DNA of 63,212 nt, counting the filler, from Asterionella formosa (taxonomy: Eukaryota), in assembly GCA_002256025.1 (NCBI GenBank). It is 24 parts of 24 records of this genome, joined end to end, with 100 filler letters (N's around TTAATTAATTAA, not from the genome) between each part and the next. Parts side by side here need not be neighbours in the genome. Positions count along the whole stretch, not along the records: positions 1 to 18,133 come from NKIB01004162.1; 23 more parts are not named here. One strand, written 5' to 3'. Shown here in pieces: positions 1 through 34,809 of this stretch. The notes under the pieces were generated by a model. That model had not been told where the DNA came from. It ran no database searches and was given only the letters and a program-made list of their open reading frames with translations. Within the stretch, counting starts at the first letter, position 1. Every line of letters starts with the position of its first letter. Made by a program: the position numbers and the translations under genes.

Positions 1-54
1 AAAATGCGTGTTGTGAATGTATTAGCCTCAAGAGCAGGATCTTAGTTGAACTTT

Positions 55-306
55 CAAATGAATTATTTGAAACATCAACTAATTCAGTCTCGCGTTCAAA
101 ATTCATTGTGAAAACTTCACATGAAACAGTTAAAACTTCACATGAAACCGTTAAAACTTCACATGAAACCGTTAAAAGTAACCTTTTTACGTGAAGAGTG
201 GCATTAATGCATGTGAAGTACATAATTAACACTTGTACGTAGACGAAATTTCGAAAAGTCAAATGAATTATTTGAAAAATCAACTAATTCAGTCTCGCGT
301 TCAAAA
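55..306 (-). repeat. Tandem ~190-205 bp unit with internal 21-bp subrepeats (subterminal part of the CATCTAAG-ended element)
   Basis: CAAATGAATTATTTGAAA..TCAACTAATTCAGTCTCGCGTTCAAAA occurs at 55 and 260. AAAACTTCACATGAAAC(A/C)GTT x3 at 111-173. Near-identical reverse complement at 62993-63212. Confidence 0.85.
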
Positions 307-825
307 AATAAGGAGCAGCAGCCATGACAATACCAAGGAAACCATTGGCACCACCACCACTGGTACAGTGGACAGAGCGAGCGTTGGCAAAGAGTTCCTT
401 GCTAAGGCGGGTTACAGTGAAGGCTGTAGGTTTGCCCTCGATCGGCGTCAAGAGCGGATGAGGGAATGGGAAAACAGCGGAAACGATTGGAGTCGTCATG
501 GTGGTAGAAGGCCTGAGAGACAGGGACAGCGAATGGGACAGCGAACGGGCAAGCGGTGCTGGACGGTTGATTGTTGAGACCAGTGCAGGTTTGCACTGTC
601 GACAAGAGCCGCAACGTCGCAGGTGCAGACAAGAGAGAAAGAACAGATATTGTAGTTCTGTTGAGGGGAACCTTGTCATGAATAAAGGTGAACTACAATA
701 TTATGACTATTCTATTGCTGTTCCAAGTACATCGTTGTTAGCACTCACGCATGTACCTAATCTGGTGGCTGCTCCGGTTTGGTTCGTACGGCGCATGTAT
801 GGAGCATCATATGCAGATATTAACA
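307..825 (-). mobile_element. 5' end of diatom CoDi-type Ty1/Copia element (5' LTR, leader, truncated gag)
   Basis: ATG at 499 gives MTTPIVSAVFPFPHPLLTPIEGKPT..KELFANARSVHCTSGGGANGFLG, a CoDi gag N-terminus. The LTR at 659-825 matches the LTR that follows a Copia RNase H at 23680-23846. Confidence 0.85.
659..825 (-). repeat. 167-bp 5' LTR (TGTTA...TCAACA)
   Basis: TGTT/AACA termini; reverse complement of 23680-23846 with only a few substitutions. Confidence 0.9.
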
Positions 826-869
826 ATAGTACCTGTAGCAATCATTTGGGGATGGCAAACCGGTCCTGT

Positions 870-1152
870 AAGAGGTACCAGGTGCTACTTACCGGTAGTA
901 GGAGTACCTGGTCCTGGTACCTAGCGGTAGTACCAGGTACCACACTAAGTATGATTCAACCGGGAGTAGACAATTACTGTATATTGTGTGGGTTTACTGT
1001 ACCTGGTACCTGGTACTCCATGTTTCAATAATATTATGTACTGGTACATATGTGTGTGCAACACTGCTGACTTTGAAGACATCAAAGCCCCATCATTACT
1101 ATGATGTCGTATTCGAGTGCTACCTGGAACCTGGTACCAGGGTACCTGGTAC
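870..1152. repeat. GGTACC / (CCAGGTA)n-(TACCTGG)n heptamer-rich tract
   Basis: For example ACCTGGTACCTGGTACT at 1001 and TACCTGGAACCTGGTACCAGGGTACCTGGTACT at 1121. Confidence 0.8.
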
Positions 1153-1304
1153 TAAGTCAACAAAAGCACTCTTCGATCGAACTCTATTTTGAGCAGTTCG
1201 ACCCTGGATGAGACGAGCACGAAGGGCACAACATACATGGTATGGGTAAATGTTTGATCATTATGGGATTTTTTTAAACGGAGCTCAGCTTTTGCCGGAC
1301 TAGT

Positions 1305-2320
1305 TCCAATTAAATCTGTAAGTGGTCCAAGAACATGAGATCGTCTAGGAAACATGTCTCGATAGTACATAATAGCACCAAGAAATGATCTGACTTGTTT
1401 AAGATTGGTAGGTGAAGACATATTAATCAATGCTCGGACCTTTTTAGACCAAGGTTTCAGTCCATTATTAGGAGTTAACCAATAGCCTAACCAATCTGTC
1501 TCTTGGACTGCCCATTCACACTTATATGGATTAATTGTAAAACCATTTGCCTGTAAACGATGTAAAATGGTGTCCAATAGATGAGGAATGTGATCCGAAA
1601 AATTCATTGAAACACAACCCACATCATCAATATAAATTTCCACATCATCTAAATCACTAAGAATCTGTTCCATAGTTTCTTGTGCAATATCAGATGATTT
1701 TTTCACCCCAATAGGGAGACGTAAATATTTATATAAACCAAATGGAGTGGAAATAACGCACAAATTTTGACTCTCCACATCTAATGCGAAAGTATAGTAT
1801 TGCATAGTAGAAACATCCAATTTGGTGAAAAATACATATCCAGCACGTTTAGTGAGAATAGTTTGTATTCGAGGCAAAGGAGATATCTTGCGATTGATGA
1901 CTTTATTGAGTTCACAAAAATCTGATACCCATCGGACACTTCCATCCTTTTTAGGAATAATAAAAGTGGGAGACGCCCATTTAGAAGCACCACATTTTTG
2001 TAGGACTCCAATATCACACAACCGTTGTAATTCGGTTTTGAAAACTTCTAAATGAATATGAACGATCGGATATGCTCGTTGATGACGAGGGATGGCATTT
2101 GATAATAATTCCAAATGAATATAAGCGATTGGATATGCTCGTTGATGACAAGGGATGGCATTTGATAATAATTCCAAATGTACCTGTTTATGAGGATAAA
2201 CTTTTAATATTCCATCAAATAATGTTTGATATTTAACCAATATAGTTCGCAAACATGAACGTTGCATTGTGTTAAATGCATCTGTTTATTCAGCACTGTA
2301 TCAATATTCACATAATTATA
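1305..2320 (-). pseudogene. Ty3/Gypsy reverse transcriptase fragment
   Basis: WASPTFIIPKKDGSVRWVSDF, FTKLDVS, TPFGLYKYLRLPIG, YIDD and KQVRSFLG motifs. Truncated at both ends; carries a 63-bp in-frame duplication (2068/2131). Confidence 0.92.
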
Positions 2321-2391
2321 TAGCACACTACCTTTCACTACGGACATAAAAGGTTGCACTGGGGGTTGAATTTTTTGCATGTACCACCCTG
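2321..2391 (-). repeat. Dispersed repeat, probable DNA-transposon terminus (CAGGGTGGTACATG, hAT-like)
   Basis: ~70 bp shared with 56514-56585; both end at CACCCTG followed by GTAG. Confidence 0.55.
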
Positions 2392-2408
2392 GTAGTACCT
2401 GGACCAGG

Positions 2409-2588
2409 TGAAGTATCTAACTAGAAGTAGTAGTATTTGTTGAATATATGAGCTAATTAATCTTATGTACAACTTGTTTCCCAAGTTGACATCAAAGTAT
2501 ACAATAAACATAGGTGTTAGTCGAGTTCTGATATATTTGATATAACCCTTTCCCTATATACATCTGTATCGATGTGCAGGATCGCTCA
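2409..2588 (-). repeat. Gypsy 3' LTR
   Basis: Direct repeat of 5066-5245, preceded by a PPT at 2589-2600. Confidence 0.92.
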
Positions 2589-2614
2589 CTCTCCCACACT
2601 TAAGGGAAAACCTT

Positions 2615-4308
2615 TTACCTATGAAAAGGTTTGATACGACGAATATTAATTCGTTCTGTAATATGCATAGTGCGTTGAAAAGTAACTGTACCATTGGCAT
2701 GTACTTGAATAATAGAATAAGGACCTTGTCCACGATCATCCAAAGTACTATGAGCATTATCCAATAGTATTAAAATCTCATCACCCACTTTGTAATCATA
2801 AGATCGACAACGGAAATTAACACGACGTAAATGTTTGTCGATTATCACTTGTCGACATTGATGTATCAATTGTAAATCTGTGATCAAAGAAATATTTAAA
2901 ATCATATCACGTTGAAAAACCCATGCACCTGGTGAAATACGTAATGTACTATGAATAGTACTTCGAGCTGCATATGATGCAGCTGCACAACATGTATCCA
3001 CAATATTTTGGGCTTGAAATTCATTCATTGGAAGATGAGCCTTTAACATAACTCGTAGACTATTACTGATAGATTGATTTAAACGTTCACAGATAGCATT
3101 TGTTTGTGGATTCTTGACTGTAGTAGTCACATCTTTAATTCCATTCAACACTAATATGTGTATGAAAGGAATACCAGTAAATTCACCTCCATGGTCATGT
3201 ACTATACAATGTTCTGGACTGGGATATCTGGCTAACCAATCATCTTTAAATTTCATTGCAATATATTCTGATGGTTTTTATTGATATGTGACATTTCTGC
3301 CAAATTGGTGACCGTATCAATGCAAGTTAGAGCGCGAAATTCAATCGCTTCAGTAGCCACTGCTATCTTCCATGGACCAATTAAGTCTACTGCGACTTCT
3401 GACCATGGTAATAACAATGCATTCCTTGGTGGAAGTTCACCAAAACCAGTACCAGGTAATTTTGTACGTTGACATGCTTCACATATGCTTACAATATGTT
3501 CCACTCTTGCTTTTAATGTATGGTGATCAAAATGTGTAGCAATTGTAGCATTTAATCTTGTCATACCCACATGAGATAACATCTGATGATACCAATTGAT
3601 AACAGGCTCCAATAGTGATGTAGGAATAGCAATACGCCAAGTATCTCCTGGATTCTTCACAAAACATATTAAAAATATATCATGAAAATTGATAGAAGGA
3701 AATTTTAATGGATGTGTTTGTTGATTGAGAATGAGATGTGTTGTTTGATTGAGAATCAATTGTTTACCCAGAAATTTTCTATCATGTCTTGAATTATAAT
3801 CCAGAGGAAATTGAATATTGTCTGCCAAGATTGGATGATTGAGGAAACAGGTAAACAGAGGTTTATCATTCCTTGGTGGAAGTTCACCAAAACCAGTACC
3901 AGGTAATTTTGTACGTTGACATGCTTCACATATGCTTACAATATGTTCCACTCTTGCTTTTAATGTAGGGTGATAAAAATGTGTAGCAATTGTAGCATTT
4001 AATCTTGTCATACCCACATGAGATAACATCTGATGATACCAATTAGTAATAGGATCCAATAATGATGTAGGAATAGCACTGCACCAAGTATCTTCTGGAT
4101 TCTTCACAAAACATTTTAAAAATATATCTTGAAAATTGATAGAGGGAAATTTTAACGGATGTGTTTGTTGATTGAGAATCAATTGTATATCCAGCAATTG
4201 TCTATCATGTATTAAATTATAATCCAGAGGATATTGAAAATTGTCTGTCAAGATTGGATGAGTATTGTGAACCCATGTATTTAACATACGAGCATGTGGA
4301 GCAGACAC
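2615..4308 (-). pseudogene. Gypsy integrase with duplicated H2C2 zinc-binding domain and one frameshift near 3255
   Basis: WYHQMLSHVG..CEACQ occurs twice. D-D-E core in VAVDLIG / HDHGGEF / NAICER; GPY-containing C-terminus; no chromodomain seen. Confidence 0.92.
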
Positions 4309-4379
4309 AGGGTTAGCAGTGTCAGTATGGTTTCTTTACGTAGGATTACTCTGTGAACCGCCTCCATGACCACCAAAAT

Positions 4380-5027
4380 GTCCTCGTCTAACGAAGCTGG
4401 AATGCCCACGTCCATTATGACGACCAGTCATGCGACCTGCTCGACCACCTTGAGTACAAGGATTCTGAAAACAATTGCCCCAAGTATGTGTACCTTCAGG
4501 ATGTACCGGGGGCAAGGGCCACGATGATCATGGTACGTACGACTGGCTTGTAGAGCTTGATGACAAACAGTCGCCTGACGATCCCATGTGCGACCGGCTG
4601 CATCATCAATAGCATGCGCTCTTCCACGACCACTTGGAGTAAAATCATTGTTGTAGAATTGACGACTGACACGCTCGTTTTCTTGAAACATCACACGATT
4701 GCCTTCAGCAATACAAAAACGATTTTGTGTGATTGTTTGAAAACTGTTCTTGGGAAGGTGCTTGTTTCGATCCTTAAACGATTGTTGACCATCGAAGTAA
4801 GCGAGAACCGAACGAATCGATTGGTCTGAAGTTTTAAAAAGCATGATTCAATTCAAACTCTTATTGCCATTCATCGGGCATAGAACGGATAATGATAATC
4901 CGCATATCTTCTTTTGACAATCCAACTTGATCTTCTGGATGAGGCATTAGTTGAAGTAGCCTGTTTAAAGTTTTAATACGAGCTCCGAAATCCATTACCA
5001 GCAGGAACCCTTGAATACATTGCCATG
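4380..5027 (-). pseudogene. Degenerate Gypsy gag
   Basis: Lies downstream of the 5' LTR. Frameshifted CP-VHPEGTHTWGNCFQNP Cys/His knuckle at ~4460-4516; multiple stops. Confidence 0.65.
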
Positions 5028-5065
5028 TTCGTTTTCTTCTAATTGGACTCTTTTTGAATTCAAAG

Positions 5066-5245
5066 TGAAGTATCTAACTAGAAGAAGTAGTATTTGTTGA
5101 ATATATGGGCTAATTAATCTTATGTACAACTTGTTTCCCAAGTGGACATCAAAGTATACAATAGGTGTTACTGGTAGTCGAGTTTTGATATATTTGATTT
5201 AACCCTAACCCTGTTTACATCTGTATCGATGTGCAGGATCGCTCA
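5066..5245 (-). repeat. Gypsy 5' LTR
   Basis: Direct repeat of 2409-2588 with several substitutions and small indels. Confidence 0.92.
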
Positions 5246-5473
5246 CCAGGTACCAGGTACCTGGTACCATATTCTTGACACTGCTATGAACCCATGCCAT
5301 ACGCAAAAAGAAGCATCAATAATAAAATATTTGAAATGGGACAATTCATCATGGGCACTATTGCTCTTCAATCCTGCTCGCATATGTATATATTATATAG
5401 ATAATAAGCACATGGATCGACACATGTGACACCGTCCCGTAGAAGCAAAGAGTAGAACCACAATCTCAAGAAA

Positions 5474-7279
5474 ATGGCTCGATCAAGTAAAGATGCCGTC
5501 GTCTTCCTCGTTGATTCCTCGCCTTCCATGAACGTCCAGTATCCAAGCAATTCGACGACCAGTACTCGGCTCTCTGCGGCCAAGACTGCTCTGGAGGGTA
5601 TGCTGAGCAATTTAATGATTCAAAGTAGCGCTCATGAAGTAGCCGTGATTGTCCTCAAAACGAAAGCAACTGCACATCACCTTGACAACGAAGACTTTCC
5701 GAACCTTTCTGTGCTTGGAAGCAGAACCGTCACGAGACCGACTGTCGAGCTCCTGAGAGAAGTCAGCAAAATTGAATCAACTTTGAAGAAGGAAGATATG
5801 AGAGAAACCCGGGGCGATGTATGCGATGGCATTATTGTGGCAGCCGATGTGTTGCGGAAACGAACGATCGGGAGGAAGTACAACAGGAGGATTGTCATTT
5901 TTACTGACGCAGCCCATGCGCTGGTGATTGATCAAGAACAAATATTACTTGTAATTGACTCTCTAAGGGAAATGGAATGTCAGCTTACAGTCATTGGTCT
6001 CGATTTTACCGAGTCTGCTGAGTTTGAGAGTCCCCTCCCAGTCAAGGAGGAATGCTTCGATGGGGTAGAAACTATGGAAGAAGCCGGAAGCGAAAATGAT
6101 AACGACAACGAGGCCGGAAGCGACATCGAGGATAACGACGACAATGACAATGATCCCTCACCAGAAAAAATTAAGCGTGAGACGGAAAGGTTTCTAGTTG
6201 GGGTGGCTCGACTGACCGGCGGGTCTGTGCAAGCAGCCACAACAATGCAATCGCTCTTGGACTCAACACTTGGAAAGAGGATACCAAAATCGACGCGACG
6301 CAAGTTTGAATTTCACATTGCGCCCGACATCGTTTTGGAGTGTCGATTCTCTTTACTCTTGTCTCGGGCTAATCTTCCATCTCTCAAAAAAGAGGTTATA
6401 TTATTTGACGAAAGCAAGAAGCCAATGAAAAACGGTATAGGCGAACTGATGACAAGTGAAATCAAGATTTCAACCGAGCATTTCGATCCAGACAATCTAG
6501 ATATAGGCCTACCTGAAACATATCGAACAAAAGCCTTCAAGTTTGGGGACGACTTGGTACCGATTGGGACATTTGACTTGGACGCGCTAATGCATCGATC
6601 ACGAGTTTGTATCAAGGTTCTTGGATACGCAGAGCAAGGTGCGATTCCCCTTTCATTGATGATTGGACCACCCTATGGCATATCGGGAGCCACGTCGCAA
6701 CGATCTTGTACAGGAATTTCTGCATTATCTCACGCTATGCACGAGCTGAAGCTAGCTGCAATTTGTACATTTGTCAAGACGAAGGATTCTGATCCGCTTC
6801 TTGGAGTCCTCTTTCCTTGGATTGAAGTTGGAACCAACTACCCCTCTCGTTTAGTCTTCATCCAACTCCCTTTTGCTGGGGATGTACAACGAATTACTAC
6901 AGCTCCACTTGATGAATTTTGTGACGAAGACAAGTTGAAGCTATGTGACGACTTGATTGACGCCATGATGCTTCCTAGTGGAATCCTCGAAAGTACGATG
7001 ATTGCGAATCCATCACTGCGGTCGTTTCGTCGTACTGTAGTGAGAAAAGCCATTGTCCCAGATGCATCAGTTGTGACGGCGCGTCTCGCGCCAATGGAAG
7101 ATCCCATGACTACACCAGCCGACATTCTTGAGCGCGCCAAGCCACTGTTGAGCTCATTTACAAAGATGTTTTCGCTGGAAAGGATAAGTGTTGCTGAAGG
7201 GCGAGGTGAAAACAAAAGAAAGGGCAAGTATTGGGACAACTTCGAAGGCAATGTTTTGGGTCAAGACGAAATCACTTAG
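5474..7279 (+). CDS. KU80: Ku80 (XRCC5), NHEJ DNA end-binding subunit, 601 aa, intronless
   Basis: vWA N-terminus (AVVFLVDSSPSM, GDVCDGIIVAAD, RIVIFTDA); beta-barrel core (KAFKFGDDLVP, LVFIQLPFAGDV); C-terminal arm (IANPSLRSF). Confidence 0.9.
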   Translation: MARSSKDAVVFLVDSSPSMNVQYPSNSTTSTRLSAAKTALEGMLSNLMIQSSAHEVAVIVLKTKATAHHLDNEDFPNLSVLGSRTVTRPTVELLREVSKIESTLKKEDMRETRGDVCDGIIVAADVLRKRTIGRKYNRRIVIFTDAAHALVIDQEQILLVIDSLREMECQLTVIGLDFTESAEFESPLPVKEECFDGVETMEEAGSENDNDNEAGSDIEDNDDNDNDPSPEKIKRETERFLVGVARLTGGSVQAATTMQSLLDSTLGKRIPKSTRRKFEFHIAPDIVLECRFSLLLSRANLPSLKKEVILFDESKKPMKNGIGELMTSEIKISTEHFDPDNLDIGLPETYRTKAFKFGDDLVPIGTFDLDALMHRSRVCIKVLGYAEQGAIPLSLMIGPPYGISGATSQRSCTGISALSHAMHELKLAAICTFVKTKDSDPLLGVLFPWIEVGTNYPSRLVFIQLPFAGDVQRITTAPLDEFCDEDKLKLCDDLIDAMMLPSGILESTMIANPSLRSFRRTVVRKAIVPDASVVTARLAPMEDPMTTPADILERAKPLLSSFTKMFSLERISVAEGRGENKRKGKYWDNFEGNVLGQDEIT

Positions 7280-7380
7280 AGAAGTGGCACTGCGTCATTA
7301 ATGTAACCCATCTGGTAAAACTTAGAGAATTTAATTTATTTCAATGCAACAATAAATTCATCGGCGAAGTATCAAGTTGG

Positions 7381-7874
7381 TTACTTGAATTCACAATAAA
7401 ACTTCGGTGTTCGTCGTTCTTTTTTTACAGGAGTTGCCCCTTCTTTTTTGGGCTTGGATTTTAGCTTTCGTTTGGAGCCATATCGCATGCCGGTCTTCTT
7501 CGGAAGAACTTTATTTTCTCCCTTATTCCACAAGGCATCAGCAAGAGGGAGTTGTGATATGGAGTCATCTACCATATCTTCTCTTTCGTCGTCCTTTTGT
7601 GTGTCTAACAATGAAGAGAGGCGAGCGAAGGAATCCATGGATCCCTTGTCCTGGGCCTCCTTCAATTTAGACTGTACCACCTGCATACTCTTTTGAGCAG
7701 CTGCCTGTAGAAGAATTGGATCATGGTTGCATTAGTTTCAAAGCACAAGTTGATAGCAAAAACCCATTCATGAGGCATTTTTAACAAACATTCACGATAA
7801 CGCACTTCTCCTACAGTTCGCCGAAACTCGGAGCGATGCTGTCTCTTGATTTTGCTTCTGATTGACTTGGCCAT
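7381..7874 (-). CDS. LLPH: LLP homolog / LAP18 family protein; exons 7874-7806 and 7704-7381, 130 aa
   Basis: Characteristic MAKSIRSKIKR N-terminus. A 101-bp GTGCG...CTACAG intron joins in frame to a Lys-rich exon 2. Confidence 0.8.
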
Positions 7875-8500
7875 TATTTCAGTTCTAAGTTGGAGAATGT
7901 AATTTGTGATGGGAATGCTCAAGCGTATTATTTTATGAAAATGTTTGGTAACGAGCATAATGCTGGATTTGTATAATGCTCTTTCCCTGAGCCGTAAAAA
8001 AATTAATTTACCTGTATACTATATCATAGAAAAACTCTATGTATGATATGTACTAGTATTCCACTTCACATGTTCGTACATTATACCATCTCCTGCTGTC
8101 AGAAAACATTTTCTTTGCCTTTCCCGACGATGGGTGTTTCTCGAGTACGTTACCAGGGTACGATAGTATAGTATAAATGATGGCAGAAATTACGACTCAT
8201 GTCCCAACATAGGTGGCCCAGGTACTACAACATAAGAGTAAAACCGGGAGATAGTTTTTACGGGATACTACATACCGGTATATGTTTTACCTGGTACCAA
8301 ATGCTACCAGGTACCGATATTCTATTCACTCTGTACATAGAATGGTGTAGCCGTATTAAAAGCACGTTTGCTGTGATGAATGTTTCACATTCCTTTATTT
8401 CCACCGGCCGGTAAACCTGTAAAAAATTGGTTGGTTTTGATCAATACGCTCATATTCCAAGTCCGTCCCTGTGTTCCCCCACCATGCTGTCGCTGATCAG

Positions 8501-8574
8501 CAAGTTGCAGCCATTTTGCTTCAATAAAAAATCTAATCTGGGATAAAGAAAGCTAAATCTTTAGCCGCAACTTG
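8501..8574. mobile_element. Copy of ~88-bp palindromic mini-MITE (internally shortened)
   Basis: CAAGTTGC...GCAACTTG ends and a TAATCTGGGATAAAGA.AGCTAAAT core shared with 36369-36456. Confidence 0.65.
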
Positions 8575-11500
8575 CAGGTCATAGGTAGTGATGGTACCAA
8601 AGAAGGTCCCAAGGTTAAATAATTAGCTTAGTGTTGTCAGGAATACTTCAATACATGGAGCAGTCCTCGTCGTGGAGCAATGGAAATTTTGCACCGTTAT
8701 GTTGTCTATCGGAACATCATAGAGGTCAATCAATGGCTATTTGAGGAATTTTTTATTTTCATTTCTTCACTTTCTTCTATAGTCGAATAATTTAACTTTC
8801 ATGATCTCCTTTCAATGGCGGAACCTCCCAAGTTGGTGGTTCAGGTATGACCTGCATGCCATCATGGTGACTTGCAAGCCAGTTTGTTGCAACAAATTGA
8901 TAGGTCTGTCCCATCATGGTTGTTCTTGCTGATGATAATAATACAACTATTGTTGTGAATCGAGGTGAAGCAGATGCATTGATTAGCACCATAAAGTCTA
9001 TATTTGTTAATTCCATTTCTATGGACATAAAGAATGCATAGCTTGTCATCCTAATACTGAATGGTGACGTCAGAAGATTGTTGGATATGGCTAGACACCT
9101 CATGGGACTGCGGGCGCATTCTCTTCCAAGTGTATCCACCTGCACCTAGCAACCTCCTTTTCTTATAGCAAACCCAAATTGCTCCAGTCAGTGAACATGA
9201 TGATGGATCAAAAATCATCTCAATACCCAAGACTCGCTCCATTGCTGATATATTTCCTCATCATGCCTACTACTGTATGTCTTCATGATACACTTGTTCT
9301 CTATTTAGAATCGCAAACTATGCCTACTTCAGGAAGTTTTGTGAAAGAAGACGGATCATTAGAGGACATTCCAGCAATGATATTTGACAATCAACCATGA
9401 TGGCACCAAGGATCATGACAACTTTGACACCAGCCGCAATGGTGGGCCTTCTCCTCCATCAGCCATCGTTGCCTCTCTGACAAACAGATTATTAGCTATC
9501 TATTCAGACTCTACCATAGTAAGAATAGATGGAGTGGGTAAGGCGTGTTGGGATAACAAGCTGCGACGATTTTTGTTTTTGTTGCTTGATGATGATGTAG
9601 CAGAAATGAATTTGCGCTGGGTGTCTCTCACGCATACATGGAGGTGATCAGGCAAGAGTATGATTGATGCCAATGATTTTGAGTATGATGGTGGTTTGCA
9701 TATGATAGGCTAGTAAAAAGTTAAAAAGAAATTACTTTAGGCAAAGAATTGCCCATATGTGATGATGACATTTTCGAAACGTTGCACCGACCAGCCATAT
9801 GTTCTAACTTTTGTAATAGTTACGATAACTGCTAACCACTTCTTGCAATATGAGGTCTGACTCGCAAAAAACACAACCTCTTGGAATGGATACCAATCAA
9901 TGTCATTTTCCAGAAGTGAAAATTGTGCAGTTGGTAACTGAGAGGTGATTTTCCCTTTGCATGATGGAGTAGGAAAGAAACTATTTATTTAGCCGTATTT
10001 AGTTATGTATTGCAGCATTTACAATGCTATTGCCCTGGAATTCGAAGGTCCATTTCCTTCGTTGCACAAAAGTGTCCGAAAATGCCAATGATTTAGTTAG
10101 TCAAGGGAGCACCTCTTTTGACAAAATGTCTAGCAAATAATAATTATTTCTATCAATGACAATAAATTTTCTTAACATAACTGATCGCTTTTTGTAAAAA
10201 AAAAGTATAAAAATACAAAAAAAAATTGTATTATCATTGAAGTCGTCTAAATCTGGGTTGGTTTCATGACATACTGGTCCTCCCTGCATTATGATGTCAT
10301 ACCTAAGTGCTGTTACTGTGCTTAGTCAATGCTGAATGCATGCATGTTGTACTTAGATACTATCGGATGATGGGTGGCACAGCACTAGTAGGTACCGGTA
10401 TGTAGTGCATCTCAACCCTTGCATGGTAGCTCAGATACTGGTTTCATATCCATATGTAGGACTAACTTTTGATTATATGAGTATATATTTACCAAAATAT
10501 TATATATATGTTGCATAGTACATAAGTGAATTTGATTTTGTACAGTTTTTTCATGTAGGTTGATGATTAACCATCTCTGTGTTAACCATGACAAACTTAT
10601 TGGAACGAATATCTCAACAAAATTGACAATGAACTAGTATTGCTATTTCGTACATATAACTAGCCTAACATAGATGAAATTATCTTTCAATAATGATAAA
10701 ATTTGCATAAGCTAGAATGGATTTTGGTTGTCGCTTGCTTAGTTTTAAAATATGACCAAAGCAGAGACTTAACTGATTCCACAGTGACCCATTTGATAGC
10801 TTATGTTCTTAGATAATTATTTCTATCTATTGTACAAATAGATGAGACAACTTGAAGCAACAAAATCTCGTAAATGGTGCAACAGCTCAAGATGCTAGGA
10901 AATACCTCAACCTATTTTTTGTACTGATTATCCATGAATGTACTAATGTTATTTTGAAGGAGGTAAATGCAGACATACTTGTAGACATTAAAAACGCGAC
11001 TAGAAAATTCGTATCGCGTGAATAGCCATGAATTCCCCTGACTAACTCATTGTGCATTTTTGGAAACTTTTGTGAAACAAAGGTACTCAGCATCCTATCC
11101 ATAACGAAAGTTGTTCCAATACCCTTCTCTTCCTTGGTGTTCCTCGCCCTGCGTTTGAACTTGAACATGCATTGTTTGATATGGAATGTATTACATTGTT
11201 GTTGTTCTTTTTGTTGTTGCTCTGCATCGTCGTTTTCTTCGTCTTGTGTTTGTAACTTTGTTTGATTGTAGCGCAGTTCCTTTACCTCCATTTCGTTCTT
11301 CCTCTTGCTTGTGCCGTTTGGAATTGGAACAGTAGTCAGTCATGAACTTACTCTGCAAACCTTGTTCTTTTCCTACAGACAATCAATCAGTTTTTGGCAG
11401 GACAGGGTTGAACCTTGGGAATAATGAAATGCGTGGTTCTCTATGTAAGGAAGGCTATCCTGTGTCAGGCAAGCCGTCAATCATTTGTTATTCGCATTGT

Positions 11501-14279
11501 TGAAAGGATTCCTCTGGTGCAAAGGGGACGAATATATACATGTTAAGCAAGTGCAATTTTTTCTTGGCTTCTGCTGATATTGTTTGCTGTTGCTTGTTGT
11601 GGTGGCTCTACCTTCGTATTTGTTCGGAATTGTTAGCGCATGCATTGCTTTTTGTCATGAATTAGAAGAAGGGCTTGATTGTGTGCTTTTTACTTGTTGA
11701 TCACAAACTTACTCTACCCACGCTGTTCTTTGTCTAAAAACAATCTATCTGGTGAGCAAGGGTTTGTTGGGAATCAGGTGGCATGGTAAGCACAACGGAT
11801 ACAATGCCTTTGTTACAATTTTTTGTTCATGAACTCACTCTGCGACTGTTGTTCACTGATTGCAGACAATCAATTTGATGAGGGCTGGGTTGGCCATTGG
11901 GGAACAAGGTACTAAAGAGCACAACAGAACCGAAATCATGGCTTCGCAACTTTTGCTTTCTCATCAACTCACTCTGCAAATGTTGCCCTCTTTCTACAAC
12001 AGACAATCAATCTGAACAATGAGAATGAGCAGCCGGCTCATTTGCTATGAAATGATCTGCTGGTAGTAGTAACAGGGACTCCTGCAAGTATGAGTAGCCA
12101 AGCAATCTTGCGATTCATGACAGCATCGAGCTGCAAGAATGAACATCCGTTGCTTGTCCTTTGGTTTGATAATCGCGTTCTATAGAAAGTATCAATATAA
12201 ATATATAGAGAAGCGATCGATTTGATTGATTTTGCGATTGTAGAATGAAATTGAAATGTTGATTGGTTACACATAATTATTTGTTTGACTAGCATATATA
12301 TTTGCTCAACCTTGAGGTATTATTGTGATCAAAGTAAAGATAAAATGGGAGCGAAAAAACAGAATTAATGGTAGTCAGAGTGAAGAATATTTGTGAATGG
12401 AAATGTTGCGAATTGTAGAGAAAAGTAGCGTATTATAGAGATTATTACTGAACAAATTTTTCTTCGTGTGGCCAGAAAATATTGTCAGTTGGCCCCAACA
12501 ATTATGTAGGTTTCTAAAATAATTATGGAAGTTGTAGAAACTAGTTTAGTTCACTCCGTTCATATACATTGTATGATGCATCATATTTTTTATGTGATGT
12601 CATACCCATAAATTATGTACGTAGCTAAATTCGTCATATTGGGCCACCCAAATAATTAATTTGGGTGATCATATTTGACTAACTTTTTTCTGGCGGCTGT
12701 ACCAGTAATTGGCGTTGTAGATGTACTGTAATAGGTTGAGTACACTTGAGTACTACCAAACCACGTGCGTAAGTACCACAAGAGGAGCCATAGAACACTA
12801 GCTGTTTGTGAATATACAGGTGGAACGATGTTCTGACAAATGTATAAAATCTAGAGTGCAATCTTGTCCACAGAAGTACTGGTGTGATCACTGGTACCCA
12901 CTAGCTAATAGAGAAGTAGTAGTTCCATGGAACGAAAGAAAAAATGGTTATACCAGGGATGAATGTGTATCTTTTTCCTCTTTGACAGGATATCTTGTCT
13001 CAACAGAAACAACAGAGGAGTATTCTAAGGATGCCTGACTCTGAGGTTGATGTCAAGGAGTTATCACAAGAGAATTGAATGAAAAAATCGAAGGCAAGAA
13101 TGTACACAAGTTGACAGGATGAATTTCAATTGAATAGCAAGAGAATTGCTTGATAATAGCTTGAGCTCATAACCTGCAATGAAGGGGGAACAAAGGAGAT
13201 CGATGATGTTGATGAATGAGGAGAGAAGAAAAGGGGTGAGTCCAATAACTGACACTGTTGGTTTGTTAAAAGAGGTATTAGATTAAGTTAATATAGAAAA
13301 ATGATAAATAGTGAAGATAGGAACTGTCAGACAAACAGACATAGAGTGACATGTCATAAAGTATTGATTCATACCATTCTGATGATATGTACAGGAGCTA
13401 AGGCGGCTAAAAATATCACGAGGATGATAAGCAAAACTAGGCGGCGAGCACAGTGACCATCCTGCTCCCTTTGATAAATTCTTCTGCAGTCTGACTGCAA
13501 TGATTACTCTTTCTAAGAGACAAGCTCAGTGTACTAAAGCCTTCTGTTCTAATCCCACCTCATTGTGAAATTATTTGACCTATCTTGTTATATCGTTCAT
13601 TTAACCTATTATTAATGTTTTCTTCACAAATTTTTATATAGATATTCATTGTGCTGTTAGACATTCAACTCTTAACTGACAACTCAACTCCACTTACAAT
13701 CACCAATATTCAATCTATCTGCATTGCATGTATACCTTGCTTTCCTTCAGTGAAATGTTGCTTGATTACTTAGAACATTCTCCATTCAAATATTTACCTT
13801 AATTTGCTGATATAGTTCTTGGCAATCAAATGCTGTTCAAATTCTCACATCATTTCAATACAGGATTTTTGCTGGAACATTATTCAAGTTTGATTATAGT
13901 TTGACTGAACTAGCTAATATGCGTGCCGTACTTGATTGTGACATCCCTTTTCATAGAGCGAGCTATGATGAATATAATACCGGTAGGAATGTTAGTATAC
14001 TGGTACCTATTCTATATATATGCAATAGTGTGGTATAATAAGAATACTCAATATATCCAGTTATTTTATCATATAGTGATGCACGGTATCTGAATATATT
14101 GCTCAAGGCAATACAAGCCCAAGGTGGTCTCATGCTTGCAAATAAACATGTGTACGAGAAGGCATGTAGCCACTGAGAAGGGTATTGTTGAGGAGGCAAT
14201 TCATAAACTACCTATTGTTGCGCGATTCGATTACCTATTGCCCACTCACTGAGTGTTAATGTCAATTTTAGCTCAATAT

Positions 14280-15177
14280 AGCCCATCATATAAAAGGCTG
14301 TTTCAAAATGAACATCACAAAAGCAAAACGCAAATTGCTCACCTTAAAGGCAGATCACAGGCAAGAGCTTGCAATTAACAAGGTCGACATTGTTGGACTG
14401 GTGAATATGGCATGGGACAATTCCTTTACAAATATTGCACCAAACAGGAAAGCAATTTACGAACAAGGATGGTATCCCTTGCACTATAATGTCTTGCTTC
14501 ACCCTGAAACTCAACTTACCCAACGACAACAACAGAACATCAATGCGCCCACATAGACTGCCACTCTCCCTCCTGATGAGTTAAACCTCCAAACTGGCTT
14601 TGCTTGAACTATTGTTGGAAGAATTTACGAGTGTTGCAAACGTGAGGATGTGCGAAATGAAATCGACCAGGATGCCCAAGCTACAAAGAGAAAGGAGACA
14701 GCGGATTCCCACATTGAGGGACACAAGAAGGGGATAACTGCAGGACTACTGGCCTCTGCACAAACCTTTGCCCTTGGGCCAACTATTCTTGCTGCTACAC
14801 TGGAATGGAAGCGAATTTCGGACATTGTCATTAGTACAAAAGAAACGAAAAGGCAACAAGAATTCAAGAAACTTCGTGGGAAAGTACTTACATTGAAGGA
14901 ACAGAACAAAATGAAAGATCAAATGTCTGTGCCAGAATTGAAATTAACGGTGCGTTGGTACAAACGGTTAGGTGATAAACCAGTTCCACAAACAAGGCAA
15001 GCTCTAATTACAAGATTCGTCAACACCGATCACCGTGATGACCAGCAACTGCCATTCCCTCGCCATAGTACACCTTCTCCTGCTGTGGTTGTTGTTACTG
15101 CACCTACTTTTGTTGCTATTCCCACTCCTGCTAGTATGACTGCTACTGCCGATCCACCATTCCGTGATGAAGTTTGA
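14280..15177 (+). pseudogene. C-terminal part of a pogo/Tc1-mariner-like (DDE_1) transposase, disrupted
   Basis: AWDNSFTNIAPNRKAIYEQGWYPLHYNVLLHPE motif; in-frame stops at ~14556-14607; homologous piece at ~21340-21460. Confidence 0.6.
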
Positions 15178-16842
15178 GACTATGCAAGTAAGCAATTGGA
15201 TGCGAAGCTCATGATTTATGAAATGCTCTGATGATGATCCTGCCCTACGAAAGTGTAAAACGTACGGTAATAAGAAAATAATTTTTGTAGTATAAACGGA
15301 GTAAAAATGAACACCAATGTAGATTTCCTTATAATAACCGAGTAAATCAATATCATCAGTCCATCGATCAGTGAGACCATTTGAAACTGAACTCTTTTCC
15401 CTCACAATTTTTTGATAAGTGCACTGAATTCCCACCAATGTCGACAAAATCAGTAGAATGATGAATATCGTTATTTCCTGCATATCTGGATTGAAACCCA
15501 AATATTTTTGTTGCAATCGGAATTTTCCTTTCAGCACCAAGAAGCAAAAAGGCTTCTGTACTGGCATTGATCAGCGAACCAACAAAACGTGATTGCAATT
15601 CACATTGTGCCCGAAGACTTAGTTGAAATTTGGTCACACCAGATTTTTCTCCTGTTAAAAATGGTTCTCCACAGCTTGTCCTGCCTATAAAATACACTGA
15701 AGCAAGAACGCACATCACGCCAGACTTGGTATCCTTGGCTTCCCCTGTCAATGTCCTTTGACTGCGCAAAACGATAAAGCGTGAACGCCCACCTAATAAA
15801 GTCATCAATAACTATCCATAGTCTGGAAGTTATATTCTGTTAGACCAGCTGGTGTGTCATGAATTATGTTAGCATTTTTAATTCAAACATATTTGATAAG
15901 AATATAATCACCGACTCAAAACATCATGCTGTCAAAGCATCTCCCGCCCTGCAAGAACTTACCTAAGATTCCTTTAAATTGATTATTCAATACATTCTGA
16001 CATTCTCTAGCTCAACTTTTTAATGCACATGCCACCAAATGATGATTTAATATAATCTAAACGTGCCTTGTTGGGACGTTCAATGGTCTGATTCATCGGA
16101 AGTAGTGCATCAGAACCATTCCATATGAAATCGGCAAGCACTGGGTCATTCTCCAGTTCTTTGCCTAACTCCGGTTTCACTGTGTATAGCCGAGTTAGGC
16201 ATGTCAACATTGGGCAAACCAATCCTGTTTGTGATTGGAAATGCCTTTCATACTTCTTTGACCAGATAGACAGGGCGGGATGTTTGATTCTCCTATGGGA
16301 CCAGAAAAAAGCACATTAGAATGATATTCTTCTTTACAGTACCTGCAATTCGCGAACTATAACCTCAAACTTACATGTTCACAGCAAAACTTCTTGGTCT
16401 TGAAAATAAAACTTACAACCTTTGTTACAATTGATGGTTCAATTTTAGCTAAGCGGGAACGACGTTCTGATAAGGCTGCTGAAATTGAAGATTCTTGATA
16501 ACCTTGTATAGAAGAGTTTTGAACCGAATTACGACCTTTGTAGTGATTGAGCTCATTGACCAATTGATAACATCCTTTGGCAAGTGCAAAATGTTTTCCC
16601 CTCAGTTTGTCATGTACTTGTTAGTCCGTGCAATTAGAAAATTTATGAGATGGTAACGTTTTGTCCATCTGCATCTGGGAGTTATTAATGTTATCATCGA
16701 CAGGAGCCATTTTTGTTGTATCAACAATTGAAAAAGAAACGTTATCATCGCTTTCAGTGTCAATTACGGGAGCCTTTGTACTAGTAGCTGATGGTGTCCC
16801 CTTCGACGATGGAGTAGTACCCCCACTAACTCTCTGTCGCTG

Positions 16843-17053
16843 ATTGGGTTCCTTTGGATAGTCGCCTATTCGCTTTTTCTTTGTTAACTCATTTTGGTAC
16901 TTGCTTCTTTGTTCCATACCGGCAGTATTTGCCACATGTTGCTTGTTTCCATGAACCTCTTTATGGTTTTTGAAGACATTGCTTGTACAACTAGATAACT
17001 GTTGTCGTTGTCTTGCTTCCTTAAAGTTCGATGATCTTAAAATCAGGTGTTGC
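16843..17053. repeat. Dispersed repeat shared (inverted) with 29631-29824, next to the Plavaka transposase
   Basis: For example GCAACACCTGATTTTAAGATCAT and GGTTCATGGAAACAAGC.ACATGTGGCAAATACTGCC are present in both copies. Confidence 0.85.
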
Positions 17054-17204
17054 AAGCTGCAATGAAATGAATCATCAGCCACTACATATAATATTTTAGG
17101 CTGTCTAGTTATGATACCAAAAAACATCAGTGCCATTTACATTATCATAAAAAAATCAGATCCGAGTTTGAGTAATAGCATCTCTTGTTTTCAAATATAC
17201 GATT

Positions 17205-17865
17205 ATACAATCCTAAAAATATGATGATTTACTGTCCCGCTGTAGTAGCAGCAGTCATGAACATATGGTGTTCTGTTGCTTGCTTACTACTGCAACTACC
17301 CTCTTTAAATTTTACGATCGTACAATACTAAAACTGTGATGATTTACTGTCCCGCTGTAGTAGCAACAGTCATGAACATATGGTGTTCTGTTGCTTGCTT
17401 ACTACTCCGACTATTCTTTTTCAATTTTATGATCATACGATCCTAAAAATATGATGATTTATTGTCCCACTGCAGTAGCAGCAGTCATGAACATATGGCG
17501 TTTTTTTGCTCGCTTACTACTCCGACTATCCTTTTTCAATTTTATGATCATACTATCCTAAAACTATGATGATTTACTGTCCCTCTGCAGTAGCAACATT
17601 CATGAACATATGGTGTTTTAATGCTCACTAACCACTCCAACTATTCTTTTTCAATTTTATGATCATACAATCCTAAAAATATGATGATTTACTGTCCCGC
17701 TGCAGTAGCAGCAGTCATGAACATATGGTGATCTGTTGCTTGCTCACTACTCCGACTATTCTTTTTCAATTTTATGATCATACGATCCTAAAACTATGAT
17801 GATTTACTGTCCCACTGCAGAAGCAACAGTCATGAACATATGGTGTTCTTTTGCTTGCTTACTAA
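17205..17865. repeat. 115-bp tandem repeat, ~6 copies, with 230-bp dimeric higher-order structure
   Basis: CATGAACATATGG at 17256, 17371, 17486, 17601, 17716 and 17831. Confidence 0.95.
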
Positions 17866-18133
17866 CTGGTACTCTGACTACCTGGTACCCCCAGTATATC
17901 ACTTCCTACCTGCTACTGGTACTCTGTATATATATGATAAAATTTTAGTGTCGTATGATGTACCGGTACACATGACAAACTCCTGCCCCAAAAAAGGGGC
18001 TTAGACAATTTGCTACCAAAATCCTCGCGTATAAATAATGATACAAATGGGTTATGACTTAGTACACCAATTGAATGGTCTAAATAATTAGTGCCAACGG
18101 ATGTAGAAAATATTGATGCAAACAAATTTCAAA

Positions 18134-18233
18134 NNNNNNNNNNNNNNNNNNNNNNNNNNNNNNNNNNNNNNNNNNNNTTAATTAATTAANNNNNNNNNNN
18201 NNNNNNNNNNNNNNNNNNNNNNNNNNNNNNNNN
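18134..18233. other. Artificial contig linker (44N-TTAATTAATTAA-44N), first of 23
   Basis: The same six-frame-stop linker starts at 19359, 20584, 21807, 23031, 24255, 25479, 43658, 44881, 46104, 47327, 48550, 49773, 50996, 52218, 53440, 54662, 55884, 57106, 58328, 59550, 60771 and 61992. Confidence 0.98.
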
Positions 18234-18469
18234 GATTTTAGTTTATTCTACTGTTTTAAACAACACAGGGGACACATGGGGATTTGTTTGCTTATTTACC
18301 CAGGTACTTCGGTCAACTCCAGAGACATGCTGCTTAGTACCAGAAAAGGCAAAGTTCCGCCTCAGAGATTCATTGAGAGATATTTCCTTTCAGTGATTTC
18401 GAATAAATACGCTAGCGTGGTCGGCAGAACAACTTACATCATGGTGCAAAAGGAAAGAAAGATAAAGGT

Positions 18470-19358
18470 TGAAAATATAATCTTAAAGATTTATATACCT
18501 ACGCCGTTCTAGCGCATTCGCTGTCCAAGCTCGTACCCTGTACTATCGCTAGAGCACTCTAACGGCTAGTTAGTGCACTGTACCGTATGACATGGTACGT
18601 GCACCCACGCGCCCACACTGCACTGCAATATTCATTCAGTCCCCTCGAATACATGGGAGGTGAAACCAAACAAATATACCACTAAACATCGACCTGGATT
18701 CGGTGCCACATGTCATTGCGTGCCCAGGAGGTAACCGGTGTCATAGGTTATGACATCGCGATGAACCTTGGCTTCAATCTTCGACCCACTGTGATCCATC
18801 AATACATGAACTTGTCGCACAAATACTCTCGTGTAATTCGGGGTAATGGCTTCGTCAGCACATCAGCCAAATTAGTCTTTCCATCTTCCTTCGTTACCCG
18901 AATCGTCCCTGCCGCCACAGCTTCTCTCGCTCTGTGATACGCTATCGCATTATGTTTCTTTTTCAAAGTCGATTCTGGATAAATCGTGTTCTTTGTCACC
19001 GCCTCGTTGTCGCAGAAAACGTTAGTCGGTCCATCGATTGGGATTCCAAACATTCTCAGCTTATACCTCAATGCCTTGATCAGTTCGACCGAGATCTTCA
19101 ATGCAACAAATTCGCTACCAAACGTCGATGTCTCGACAGTGTTCTGTCGCTTACTGTACCATATAATTGGAGCCCAATTCACAAAAATCAGTATCCCGGT
19201 CTGCGAGCGCCTCGTCACCCGATTCCCCGCATGATCCGCATCCACAAAACAGTGAGTAGTTACAACATTACCTCTGGGCTCGGGTGCGTCCCCTGGAATA
19301 GACTCCTGCGCTCCCCTGTAAAAGTCGTGCCAATCGCATTTAACAAACCTGGATTCGT
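18470..19358 (-). mobile_element. Ty1/Copia 3' end: RNase H (stop at 18799), PPT and probable LTR (starts 18638, other end uncertain)
   Basis: FVDADHAGNRVTRRSQTG, WYSKRQNTVETSTFGSEF, FCDNEAV and NLADVLTK motifs; GAGGGGAC tract followed by TG at 18638. Confidence 0.9.
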
Positions 19359-21339
19359 NNNNNNNNNNNNNNNNNNNNNNNNNNNNNNNNNNNNNNNNNN
19401 NNTTAATTAATTAANNNNNNNNNNNNNNNNNNNNNNNNNNNNNNNNNNNNNNNNNNNNTCATCATCATCAGGAGATGAGATGAAAGTCGACATGGTCAGT
19501 GACCGACGATGATGAATATATAGAACGCATGCATATAATGAACAAGAGGCGGCATAGCATACAAGAGGATGCATCGATATGAAAATTTAACTGTTCAAAA
19601 TTAAAGTTAAAAATATATATAATGTCAGAGAAGTAATCTTAAATATCTCTATTATCAGAGCGCAAGGACGATATTATGTAGCAGATCACCAGAATAATTT
19701 GTGTTATAATACACACATGATATAATAATTTTTTATTATCAGAGCGCGCCCAATGCTTTACTTCATATTTACATCTATCTGACGTGTACATTTTGTCAAT
19801 CTGACACAATTTAGCTGTCAACATGAAGGAGATGATTCTGCTCATGGTTCATCATTATAAAAGGTTCACCCGTTGGGGCTGTTATTTCGCATACTGGTAG
19901 TTAGGTTCTTATTGAAGAATAAACAATACTCTGTTGCTATTATGATTCATTTGCAAGATGAATATAGGAAATTGGTCTTTATGTACCGGTTTATAAAATG
20001 CTACTCTATGATACGACGTCGACATAGATGAATAAACCACCCTTCTGCCCGGTGTACAGTCACACGAATGCATATAAGGGATTCGCTCTATTAGCCAGCA
20101 TTTCACCATGGTGGCAGCCCTTCCAAACAATGATGCCAGGCAAGACACAAGCACTACCAATGCATCAGTGGGAACAACAGCCGCAATTAATTTTGCTATT
20201 ATGATGGTGGATCAAAATGATATATCTCATCTAGCAAAAAAGGCACGTACTGATGCCCACTCCAGTGCGGCTGCCAAAGGCAAAAAGCCATCACTAACTA
20301 TACAGATCAAAGCGGCATTTCAGGAAAATCTTGGAAAGGCAAGAGCAGCAGCCATGGCACACACAGTGACTCTTTGAAAGGCACAGCTGAACAGTGGTGA
20401 AGGAAAATCACTAGTGGAGGAAAACACTCACATATGAAAATACAGCTCAACATCACTCGGGACTACTGGGAGGAAGCAATATGGTGGAAAAGATTGAAAG
20501 CGATGCCAGGGACTCCTGTGATTCCACAAAATCAGCAAACCTTTGAAGCGAAACGATTTTCGACACAACTAGACGTCAAAAGCNNNNNNNNNNNNNNNNN
20601 NNNNNNNNNNNNNNNNNNNNNNNNNNNTTAATTAATTAANNNNNNNNNNNNNNNNNNNNNNNNNNNNNNNNNNNNNNNNNNNNTAATGGTATTACCGGTA
20701 CCAGGTAAAGTAATAGCTACGTAGCGGCATGTGCAGTTTATGATGGTATTGATGATGTGATCTCAAATTTGAAACTCCGCAAATACGAACTAGTACAATG
20801 TTATTAGAATGTAAAAATTATAAATGTGCAGTACTACCGGTAGGGTACCCTGGTACCACCTAAAAACTGAGAGTCATACAAACTTTCAGTTTTGTACTGA
20901 TAGTCATAACAAAACGGGGTAATCACACGGTTTGAGACGAATATTTGTAATATTATAAATCTGTATTAGACAAAGTCCTTCCTGTGCATATAAGGAACAG
21001 CATTGTTCGTACTTGAACACTGCAATCTCGTACCAGTTCTTTAGTTATAGTAGCCCAAAATTGGCTGTCGACGGTTTTTGGTCCAAATCAGTTTTACCCC
21101 ATTGAGCCTGCATGACTTTTTCAACACATAGGAGAAGCTGAAGCTATATAAATAATTAGCTTGTTTCAAGACTTTTCCGCATCATTACTATGGCATGTTT
21201 GCGCCATTGCAATTAAGTTGTGCGCCATAATAACTTGTTTATTTAGAGTTGTTTAAGTGCTGGTGCGCCAATCAATAAATATTATAACCTAGTGGTACCT
21301 GGTACTGGCATGATAGACTACTAGTAGACCAGCACTGCT

Positions 21340-23130: not shown

Positions 23131-23846
23131 GCATTCACTTTCTCAGCTGTAAACCCGTGTCTCCACCTAGCCTCACTACATCCATCCCTCCTCTTAACGG
23201 TGCTATTTACGTCCACTGTCAAATTCTTAAGGAGGTTGTATCCAGTGCTGCTGAGGCCGAATTAGCTGCTTTATTCCACAATGGCAAAGAGGCATATGCT
23301 ATTCGCACCATTCTTGCTGAGCTTGGTCATCCCCAACCTTCTACCCGTATTGTCACCGATAATAGCACTGCCAGTGGCATCGCCAATGATACTGTCCGAC
23401 AAAAACGTTCCAAAGCTATGGATATGCGTTATTACTGGGTACGCGATCGGGTTCGCCAAGGCCAATTTCTTGTATACTGGAAAAAAGGTAGTTTGAATCG
23501 TGCTGATTATTTCACTAAACATCATCCCGCTTCCCATCATATGTTGATGCGCCCGCACTACCTCCATTGCCCTCCATCCCTCCCTAGTCCTCCTAACTAT
23601 TATGCGTGCTTGGCTTCCGATGCTGATAGCATCTCCCTCCCCGCTCCTGTTCTCCTGCCTGCATCTGTTGGTGAGGGTGTGTTAATATCTGCATATGATG
23701 CTCCATACATGCGCCGTACGAACCATACCGGCGCAGCCACCAGATTAGGTACATGCGTGAGTGCTGACAACGATGTACTTGGAACAGCAATAGAATAGTC
23801 ATAATATTGTAGTTCACCTTTATTCACGATAAGGTTCCCCTCAACA
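23131..23846 (+). mobile_element. CoDi-type Copia 3' end: RNase H, PPT and 167-bp 3' LTR (23680-23846)
   Basis: SSAAEAELAALF, TDNSTASG, KRSKAMDMRYYWVRDR and NRADYFTKHH motifs; GGTGAGGGTG precedes TGTTAAT. The pol ORF reads into the LTR (stop at 23798). Confidence 0.93.
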
Positions 23847-25478: not shown

Positions 25479-25578
25479 NNNNNNNNNNNNNNNNNNNNNN
25501 NNNNNNNNNNNNNNNNNNNNNNTTAATTAATTAANNNNNNNNNNNNNNNNNNNNNNNNNNNNNNNNNNNNNNNNNNNN

Positions 25579-34749: not shown

Positions 34750-34750
<1 letters not shown>

Positions 34751-34809
<59 letters not shown>

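Follow-up and report, generated by a model that had tools for sequence, protein, structure and literature searches.

How does a Copia-type element start reverse transcription when the bases after its 5' LTR lack the TGG of a tRNA-type primer-binding site (PBS), and when exactly these bases are complementary to a segment of the LTR itself? This question is raised by a truncated element in a 63,212-nucleotide stretch of DNA from Asterionella formosa (hereafter the window, i.e. the whole stretch that was analysed). A preliminary description of this DNA had proposed a self-complementary PBS and priming by the element's own RNA, in the manner of the Tf1 element. The layout that it described was confirmed: on the minus strand, GAACTACAATAT (658-647) comes directly after the LTR, without a TGG, and a perfect 12-nt complement is found at 701-690, 31 nt before the LTR end. 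Both the exact pairing and its position are thus directly established. Based on the comparison of related sequences presented below, we consider it probable that these 12 nt are a PBS and that the primer is the element's own RNA, i.e. a Tf1-like self-priming.

The 63-kb window is a chain of contigs connected by N44-TTAATTAATTAA-N44 linkers and not a single continuous locus. Its pieces comprise 1-18133, seven stretches of about 1124 bp (18234-25478), 25579-34819, 34830-43657 and then more stretches of about 1122 bp. Many of the pieces within 18134-25578 and 43658-62091 are almost exactly 1121-1125 bp long. Distances and orientations across the linkers are meaningless. This matters because the site of interest (647-701) and the second occurrence of the 12-mer (23804-23815) sit on different contig pieces. 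The preliminary description had counted this second occurrence as conservation in the 3' LTR copy. The 12-mer is indeed there and within an LTR, but it is the LTR of another copy. As this LTR is inverted relative to 659-825, lies on its own 1124-bp piece (23131-24254), is preceded by a Pol C-terminus and by GGTGAGGGTG and is followed by unrelated DNA, we assigned it as the 3' LTR of a different copy. Even so, this copy confirms that the 12-mer belongs to the LTR. The Pol reading frame before it extends into the LTR. No further related element was found in the window when it was searched by tblastn with the Pol and Gag pieces. All features are collected in the table.

Features of the two element copies, with coordinates along the window
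Feature	Position	Strand	Remarks
Gag N-terminus, 64 codons	308..499	-	98% identical to the first 64 residues of the 362-aa Gag P0123
5' untranslated leader	500..646	-	between PBS and gag ATG (499-497)
PBS (candidate)	647..658	-	GAACTACAATAT, abuts the last LTR base; + strand reads ATATTGTAGTTC
5' LTR of truncated diatom Copia-type element	659..825	-	167 nt, TGTT...AACA; 96% match to the second LTR copy
Last 11 nt of LTR, TCCCCTCAACA	659..669	-	unpaired in the fold; putative first template copied from the primer
Inner stem-loop ACCTT-N10-AAGGT	670..689	-	predicted in minimum-energy folds, stacked directly on the 12-bp duplex
Candidate self-primer ATATTGTAGTTC, proposed start of R	690..701	-	exact complement of PBS
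Pol C-terminus (RNase H end), another copy	23133..23798	+	98% identical to the C-terminus of the 1303-aa polyprotein P0003
Polypurine-tract-like GGTGAGGGTG	23670..23679	+	just 5' of 3' LTR; same motif precedes the LTR in L118, L121 and L123
3' LTR of other copy	23680..23846	+	contains the same 12-mer at 23804-23815

Because the argument depends on where the LTR ends, its edges were defined from several sides. On the minus strand (825 to 659) the LTR starts with TGTTAATATC and ends with CCCCTCAACA. Further information came from four RNA runs, all in the form of assembled contigs. Besides the match to the second copy, the outer edge is visible in the depth of run X1, which is 0.35-2.0 million in bins 320-829 and drops to a few thousand at 830 and beyond, and in contigs of runs X6 and X15, which at 825 switch from the window sequence to the Pol-end and polypurine-tract (PPT) sequence of 23650-23679 in reverse complement. 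Altogether, these three observations fix the edges of the LTR at 659-825.

Next, the length of the self-complementarity was compared to dinucleotide-preserving shuffles of the LTR together with the 12 nt after it. In none of 20,000 shuffles did the longest complement, counted from the first post-LTR base, reach 12 nt; the maximum was 10, seen twice. In the window as a whole, the 12-mer with at most one mismatch has 3 matches against 0.44 expected, and 3 or more were found in 1 of 100 shuffles. In terms of predicted RNA structure, the hairpin formed by the two 12-mers is the minimum-energy fold of the 66-nt region, with -14.4 kcal/mol compared to -6.4 +/- 2.1 in shuffled sequences (z -3.7, 1 of 200 shuffles as good), and it is retained when the whole LTR and leader are folded. 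An outer 7-bp extension of the stem seen in the window (AGAAUAG with CUGUUCU) was dropped, as it has no counterpart in the second family described below.

A PBS may also be served by a host RNA, e.g. an internal tRNA fragment or a half-tRNA of the copia/Ty5 type, in which case the role of the LTR 12-mer would be that of a decoy or of a regulator that masks the PBS. Half-tRNA priming is indeed known in the Copia lineages Osser, Bryco, Gymco-II and Bianca, according to the available part of PMC6317226. On the other hand, a search of window positions 300-900 against Rfam at E-values up to 1 gave no matches, tRNA included; ARAGORN predicted no tRNA genes over the window. Further evidence on this explanation comes from the related families, and we return to it there.

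To place the 12 nt within an element, it is important to consider what lies downstream. The Gag N-terminus in the window is homologous to the N-terminus of the Fistulifera solaris polyprotein P0062 and to Gag proteins from metagenomes. The window copy itself (306-825) is a stump, as its gag is broken at around 306 by an unrelated, very deep and high-copy repeat. In contigs of runs X6, X15 and X16 the sequence runs on into gag where the window diverges (loose ends 303/308). With a true leader and Gag downstream, the 12 nt consequently occupy a real PBS position and are not flanking DNA.

The preliminary description had also called the element a Copia element, and this assignment was supported by both relatives and domain order. 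With the Pol fragment P0001 as query, 853 of 5396 candidates were related at E <= 0.001, with P0003 as the best match. A precomputed PF07727 (RVT_2) annotation is carried by many among the best 120 of these 853, and the named relatives among the same 120 come only from the diatoms Fragilaria crotonensis, Nitzschia inconspicua and Fistulifera solaris. In P0003 itself, Pfam placed SH3_retrovirus at 367-423 and RVT_2 at 840-957, both below the cut-off (25.7 vs 27 bits and 20.9 vs 31.6 bits, respectively). The resulting order, i.e. integrase-associated SH3, then RVT_2, then an RNase H-like C-terminus, is that of Copia. Neither the Gypsy order, with RT-RNase H before integrase, nor a Gypsy-type RT was seen in P0003. 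These sequence features identify the element as a Copia-type element of diatoms.

Full-length copies found in metagenome contigs (L117-L119) are about 5.6 kb long with 167-nt LTRs, and this 167-nt LTR is present in L117, L118, L119, L124 and L125. In the full-length copies, a single TGA (L119 1522-1524; also L117 and L118) separates gag (362 codons) from pol, and both share one reading frame, which suggests stop-codon read-through rather than frameshifting for gag/pol. Approximately half of the sampled words of window 306-832 were found in contigs of many freshwater, lake, estuary and marine metagenome or metatranscriptome runs from 17 studies, and this suggests that the element family, or its host, is widespread. 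In at least one sample (run X1) the family seems to be highly abundant, although depth there does not equal copy number.

If the two 12-mers function as a pair, related elements should be informative. Relatives were collected by a Gag-alignment scan of metagenome contigs, which yielded 10 loci. Eight of them have sequence upstream of gag (all except L120 and L126), so that the assessable set consists of nine sequences, namely the window and these eight loci. Pairing between primer and PBS is complete (12/12) in seven of the nine, 11/12 in one (L124) and fails in one (L122). An identical 12/12 pair defines what we call family 1 in the window, L117, L118, L119 and L125. L124 also belongs to this family (Gag 86% identical), and its single lost pair is due to one A>T change in the PBS.

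Searches elsewhere were less productive. Genome contigs gave no match to the loop pattern and no relatives by Gag alignment. Viral contigs likewise gave no match to the loop pattern, and no relatives were found in them with the Pol fragment. A 14-nt pattern from the LTR end was also tried on the viral contigs and rejected: it gave at least 116 chance matches in unrelated contigs, being too short to be of use.

The related contigs bear directly on the simplest objection, i.e. that the inverted repeat is due to chance or to assembly. The window is a contig chain, and some related contigs are collapsed or wrapped, as in the case of L117, in which PBS and leader come after the 3' LTR. However, the same junction is found in the window and in seven independent contigs from several sources. 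In L119, L124 and L125 this same LTR/PBS junction is found with unrelated, ordinary 5' flanks, and contigs of runs X6, X15 and X16 contain it too. Together with the shuffles, none of which reached a 12-nt match, these independent contigs effectively refute chance or artefact.

Conservation within family 1 was then described at the level of single columns. Among the six family-1 copies, variable columns amount to 11/124 in U3, 0/12 in the primer, 6/31 in the loop, 1/12 in the PBS and 16/60 in the leader (first 60 columns), making the 5' leader the most variable part. Thus, the arms vary at 1 of 24 columns compared to 22 of 91 in loop and leader together; this within-family conservation is a direct observation. 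In run X1, the only arm variant among those listed is 656 T>C at about 5% of depth, and it turns an A-U pair into a G.U pair.

The most important comparison is that to a second family, consisting of L121 and L123, two independent metagenome contigs from different sources (Gag 52-54% identical). In this family the layout is TTTAACTAGCTC, then 31 nt to the LTR end CCCCTCAATA, then GAGCTAGTTAAA, again without a TGG after the LTR and again with 12/12 pairing. The 12-bp duplex lies in the same places as in family 1, with the same 31-nt spacing and with the same unpaired A and C at its borders. Nevertheless the arms themselves are different: 6 of 12 positions differ between the families, and all six are compensated on the other arm. 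This compensated divergence is plainly observed. In both families the 12-bp hairpin is the minimum-energy structure (z -3.0 to -5.2). The preliminary description had named covariation among related families as a check on its proposal, and with 6/12 positions changed and compensated this check turned out positive, in two families and with L122 as a misfit.

To express this in numbers, pairs were counted on an ungapped 55-nt alignment (A3) in which the misfit L122 was included. It was used instead of an alignment of a wider region (A2), because there MAFFT opened a 3-column gap in the primer site. In A3, 94.1% of the cells are paired compared to 78.6% in shuffles (reached by 0 of 500), seven pairs are altered on both sides (13 of 500 shuffles), and the covariation score is 0.389 compared to 0.141 in shuffles (reached by 0 of 500); it has to be added that two families are in effect one independent comparison and that the control for related sequences is weak at such depth. 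When the partner was slid by 1-3 columns as a control, only 31-48% of the cells were paired. Between the families, the 31-nt loop in A3 is far better conserved than the 12-nt arms. Within this loop, the five pairs of the inner stem (ACCUU/AAGGU) are invariant in all seven distinct sequences, and its own loop is variable. As these pairs never vary, they say nothing on structure, and there is no covariation either way.

For the host-RNA explanation these results have clear consequences. Two different host RNAs would be needed, and each would have to be exactly mirrored at the same position of the LTR and with the same spacing. Furthermore, the arms differ at half of their positions, and the loop between them is largely conserved. 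We therefore judge priming by a host RNA to be very improbable. The compensated divergence of the two families strongly favours Tf1-like self-priming over a host tRNA primer, as far as can be read from sequence comparison, and the self-complementary PBS of the preliminary description is supported by a second family with a different perfect 12-mer pair at homologous positions.

Two of the contigs deserve a more detailed description. In the case of L122, a third lineage (Gag 52% identical), TTGAGCATAGTC stands before the loop and GTGCGCGTGAGA after the LTR, and between these two sites only 3/12 positions pair as Watson-Crick pairs, or 6/12 when wobble is allowed. The 12 nt at its PBS position pair with the last U5 bases, giving a local hairpin across the LTR end (positions 1-64, -23 kcal/mol, z -4.2). 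The contig begins with TGTTGA, only 14 nt 5' of the loop. Possibly, L122 represents a different priming architecture or a chimeric contig end. In the case of L123, positions 557-933 contain, in this order, the Pol end, the PPT, a first LTR, 15 nt including the PPT-like GATGAGGGTG, a second LTR, the PBS and gag. The two LTRs are 84% identical, and the arrangement is tandem or internally deleted. The upstream LTR contains a third 12-mer, TCTATCTCACTC, whose matching PBS is hidden because the 15 nt and then the next LTR come after it.

Covariation shows selection on the pairing, but not its purpose. The 5' leader could also have conserved this stem as an RNA structure that serves something else, for example in packaging, in dimerisation, to mask the LTR end or to control read-through of the poly(A) signal in the LTR, and reverse transcription would then be primed in some other way. 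The different hairpin that L122 has at the same place would fit such a structure, as would the conserved hairpin of unknown role that is described at the PBS position of fungal GalEa elements in the available part of PMC5445492. Against this speaks the precise location of the duplex: in both families its end coincides with the first post-LTR base, the position that sets the start of minus-strand DNA. In addition, there is no alternative PBS and no TGG in the next bases, and the overall architecture is Tf1-like, with a putative 5' segment that pairs with the PBS across a predicted stem-loop. Taken together, we regard a purely structural stem as unlikely.

Returning to self-priming, a mechanism can be outlined by analogy with Tf1 and with retroviral reverse transcription, from which the start of transcription, the cleavage, the priming and the rewriting of the PBS are inferred. 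Firstly, AUAUUGUAGUUC would form the 5' end of the transcript or lie within a few bases of it, and would fold over the 31-nt loop onto GAACUACAAUAU. The loop would then consist of the small conserved stem-loop and of 11 unpaired U5 bases serving as first template. Tf1 reportedly requires a U5-IR stem-loop, as described by Lin and Levin in 1998. Secondly, the RNase H of the element would cut after the 12th base (C12), and the freed 3'-OH would be extended across U5, so that the first DNA base would be placed exactly at the LTR end. The first strand transfer would make use of up to 31 nt from position 13 onward. Finally, plus-strand synthesis would copy the RNA primer into DNA. Such copying of the RNA primer during plus-strand synthesis is part of the standard retroviral scheme. 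As the PBS of the progeny would thus be rewritten from the primer in each cycle, the arms could stay perfectly complementary while drifting between families.

Regarding the start of transcription, CATAA is conserved immediately 5' of the 12-mer in both families. This is no more than a hint, which would fit transcripts that begin a few bases upstream of 701. TATA-like A/T-rich blocks upstream of the 12-mer were too vague to place a start site and were set aside. It counts against the scheme that, with a start at 701, R and U5 together would be only 43 nt long and the homology for the first strand transfer would be at most 31 nt.

It is helpful to compare this scheme with known systems. Self-priming is proven for Tf1 and widely proposed in the Tf1/sushi group of Gypsy elements (PMC7175516, PMC4600332, each as far as available). 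In Tf1 the PBS pairs with bases 1-11 of the RNA, and the RNase H cleavage falls between bases 11 and 12 (PMC7175516); Tj1 of S. japonicus is proposed to self-prime as Tf1 does (PMC4600332). As in Tf1 and Tf2 of Schizosaccharomyces pombe and in Tj1, the PBS of the diatom element pairs with a segment at the 5' end of its own RNA (11 nt in Tf1, 12 nt at the putative 5' end in the diatom element). Also in common with the Tf1/sushi elements is the PBS that is not of tRNA type. A stem-loop between primer and PBS, as in these elements, is predicted in the folds of the diatom element. The differences are equally clear. The Tf1 group is Gypsy-type, with integrase after RT-RNase H, whereas the diatom element shows the Copia order with a C-terminal RNase H and an RVT_2-type RT. 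Compared to the Tf1 group, its loop of only 31 nt and its LTR of only 167 nt are short. Furthermore, cleavage and priming are experimental in Tf1, whereas in the diatom element they are deduced.

Among Copia elements, the plant Ty1/Copia lineage TAR, including Houba and Osr-1, is described in the available part of PMC6317226 as being without tRNA-type PBS and is predicted there to self-prime. By description, TAR and the diatom element are thus alike in being Copia-type, in the lack of a tRNA-type PBS and in the predicted self-priming. TAR is, however, a lineage of land plants, whereas the named relatives of the diatom element, among the matches listed, are all diatom proteins. The novelty of the idea had been left to a literature check in the preliminary description. 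A full-text search, with most subscription journals outside its scope, found no paper on self-priming in diatom elements, but the prediction for TAR means that self-priming in Copia elements as such had been put forward before.

A further comparison is that to GalEa. In the available part of PMC5445492, these fungal Copia elements are described as lacking a tRNA-type PBS, the hairpin at the PBS position is termed the Conserved Hairpin Site, and GalEa is placed together with the diatom CoDi clades on 'branch 1' of Copia. In GalEa the site consists of a short palindrome to which the last LTR base belongs, and the authors found no complement in the LTR according to the same part of the paper, whereas the diatom PBS has a defined 12-mer partner in the LTR. 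The arrangement in L122 is closer to GalEa than the pairs of families 1 and 2 are. CoDi elements are Copia-like elements of diatoms, 5.2-8.1 kb in length, with LTRs of 153-844 bp and TG..CA ends (Maumus et al. 2009, PMC2806351). With about 5.6 kb and 167-nt LTRs the element described here is within these ranges, and in these features it resembles CoDi. The main text of the CoDi paper, in the part available, makes no mention of a tRNA or a primer-binding site.

These comparisons allow a wider reading, according to which the whole diatom Copia clade might do without host tRNA primers. Each family would then have a private pair of 12-nt primer and PBS, rewritten in each replication cycle and free to drift, and the hairpins of L122 and of the GalEa site would be other states of an ancestral 'branch 1' Copia hairpin-priming. 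We put this forward tentatively and consider it rather doubtful at present. If it were true, it would agree with the idea that in LTR elements hairpin self-priming is older than tRNA priming. Host control directed at PBS sequences of the tRNA type would then miss the elements of this clade, and annotation pipelines requiring a tRNA PBS would drop them.

If self-priming of the present element holds true, it would extend self-primed reverse transcription to diatom Copia-type elements. For this mechanism, proof so far comes only from the Gypsy-type Tf1 group, and a prediction exists for one plant Copia lineage. The diatom example, with its 12 bp, 31-nt loop and 167-nt LTR, is compact and easily testable. 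As primer and PBS have diverged with compensation, the co-evolution of a cis-acting primer pair could be studied here in a natural system. There is also a practical side to it: some annotations of diatom genomes keep LTR candidates only when LTRdigest finds both a PPT and a PBS (PMC7466962, available part). As such annotations demand a PBS, families without a tRNA-type PBS are presumably lost or under-counted.

Finally, some observations were made on the DNA around the element. DNA rich in GGTACC-like units surrounds element copies in the window (833-1150 and 23847-23880) and in the 5' flanks of L124 and L125; it may be a preferred target or a host repeat. The repeat that interrupts the Copia copy at around 306 contains TTCATTGTGAAAACTTCACATGAAAC-like units (window 54-306) and shows extreme depth in run X1. 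Positions 54-156 of this repeat recur, inverted and 100% identical, at the opposite end of the window (63079-63181). On the other side, the Copia LTR is adjoined by Gypsy-type pieces at 1152-5246 on the minus strand, with RVT_1 in 1152-2285, Integrase_H2C2 in 3253-4335 and the integrase upstream of RT. This stretch has internal direct repeats (3420-3719/3867-4166 and 2408-2589/5065-5246) and is a rearranged or nested element. Lastly, tandem arrays with a 115-bp period in 6 copies and a 273-bp period in 4 copies (98-99% alike) are found at window 17073-17947 and 24355-25473.
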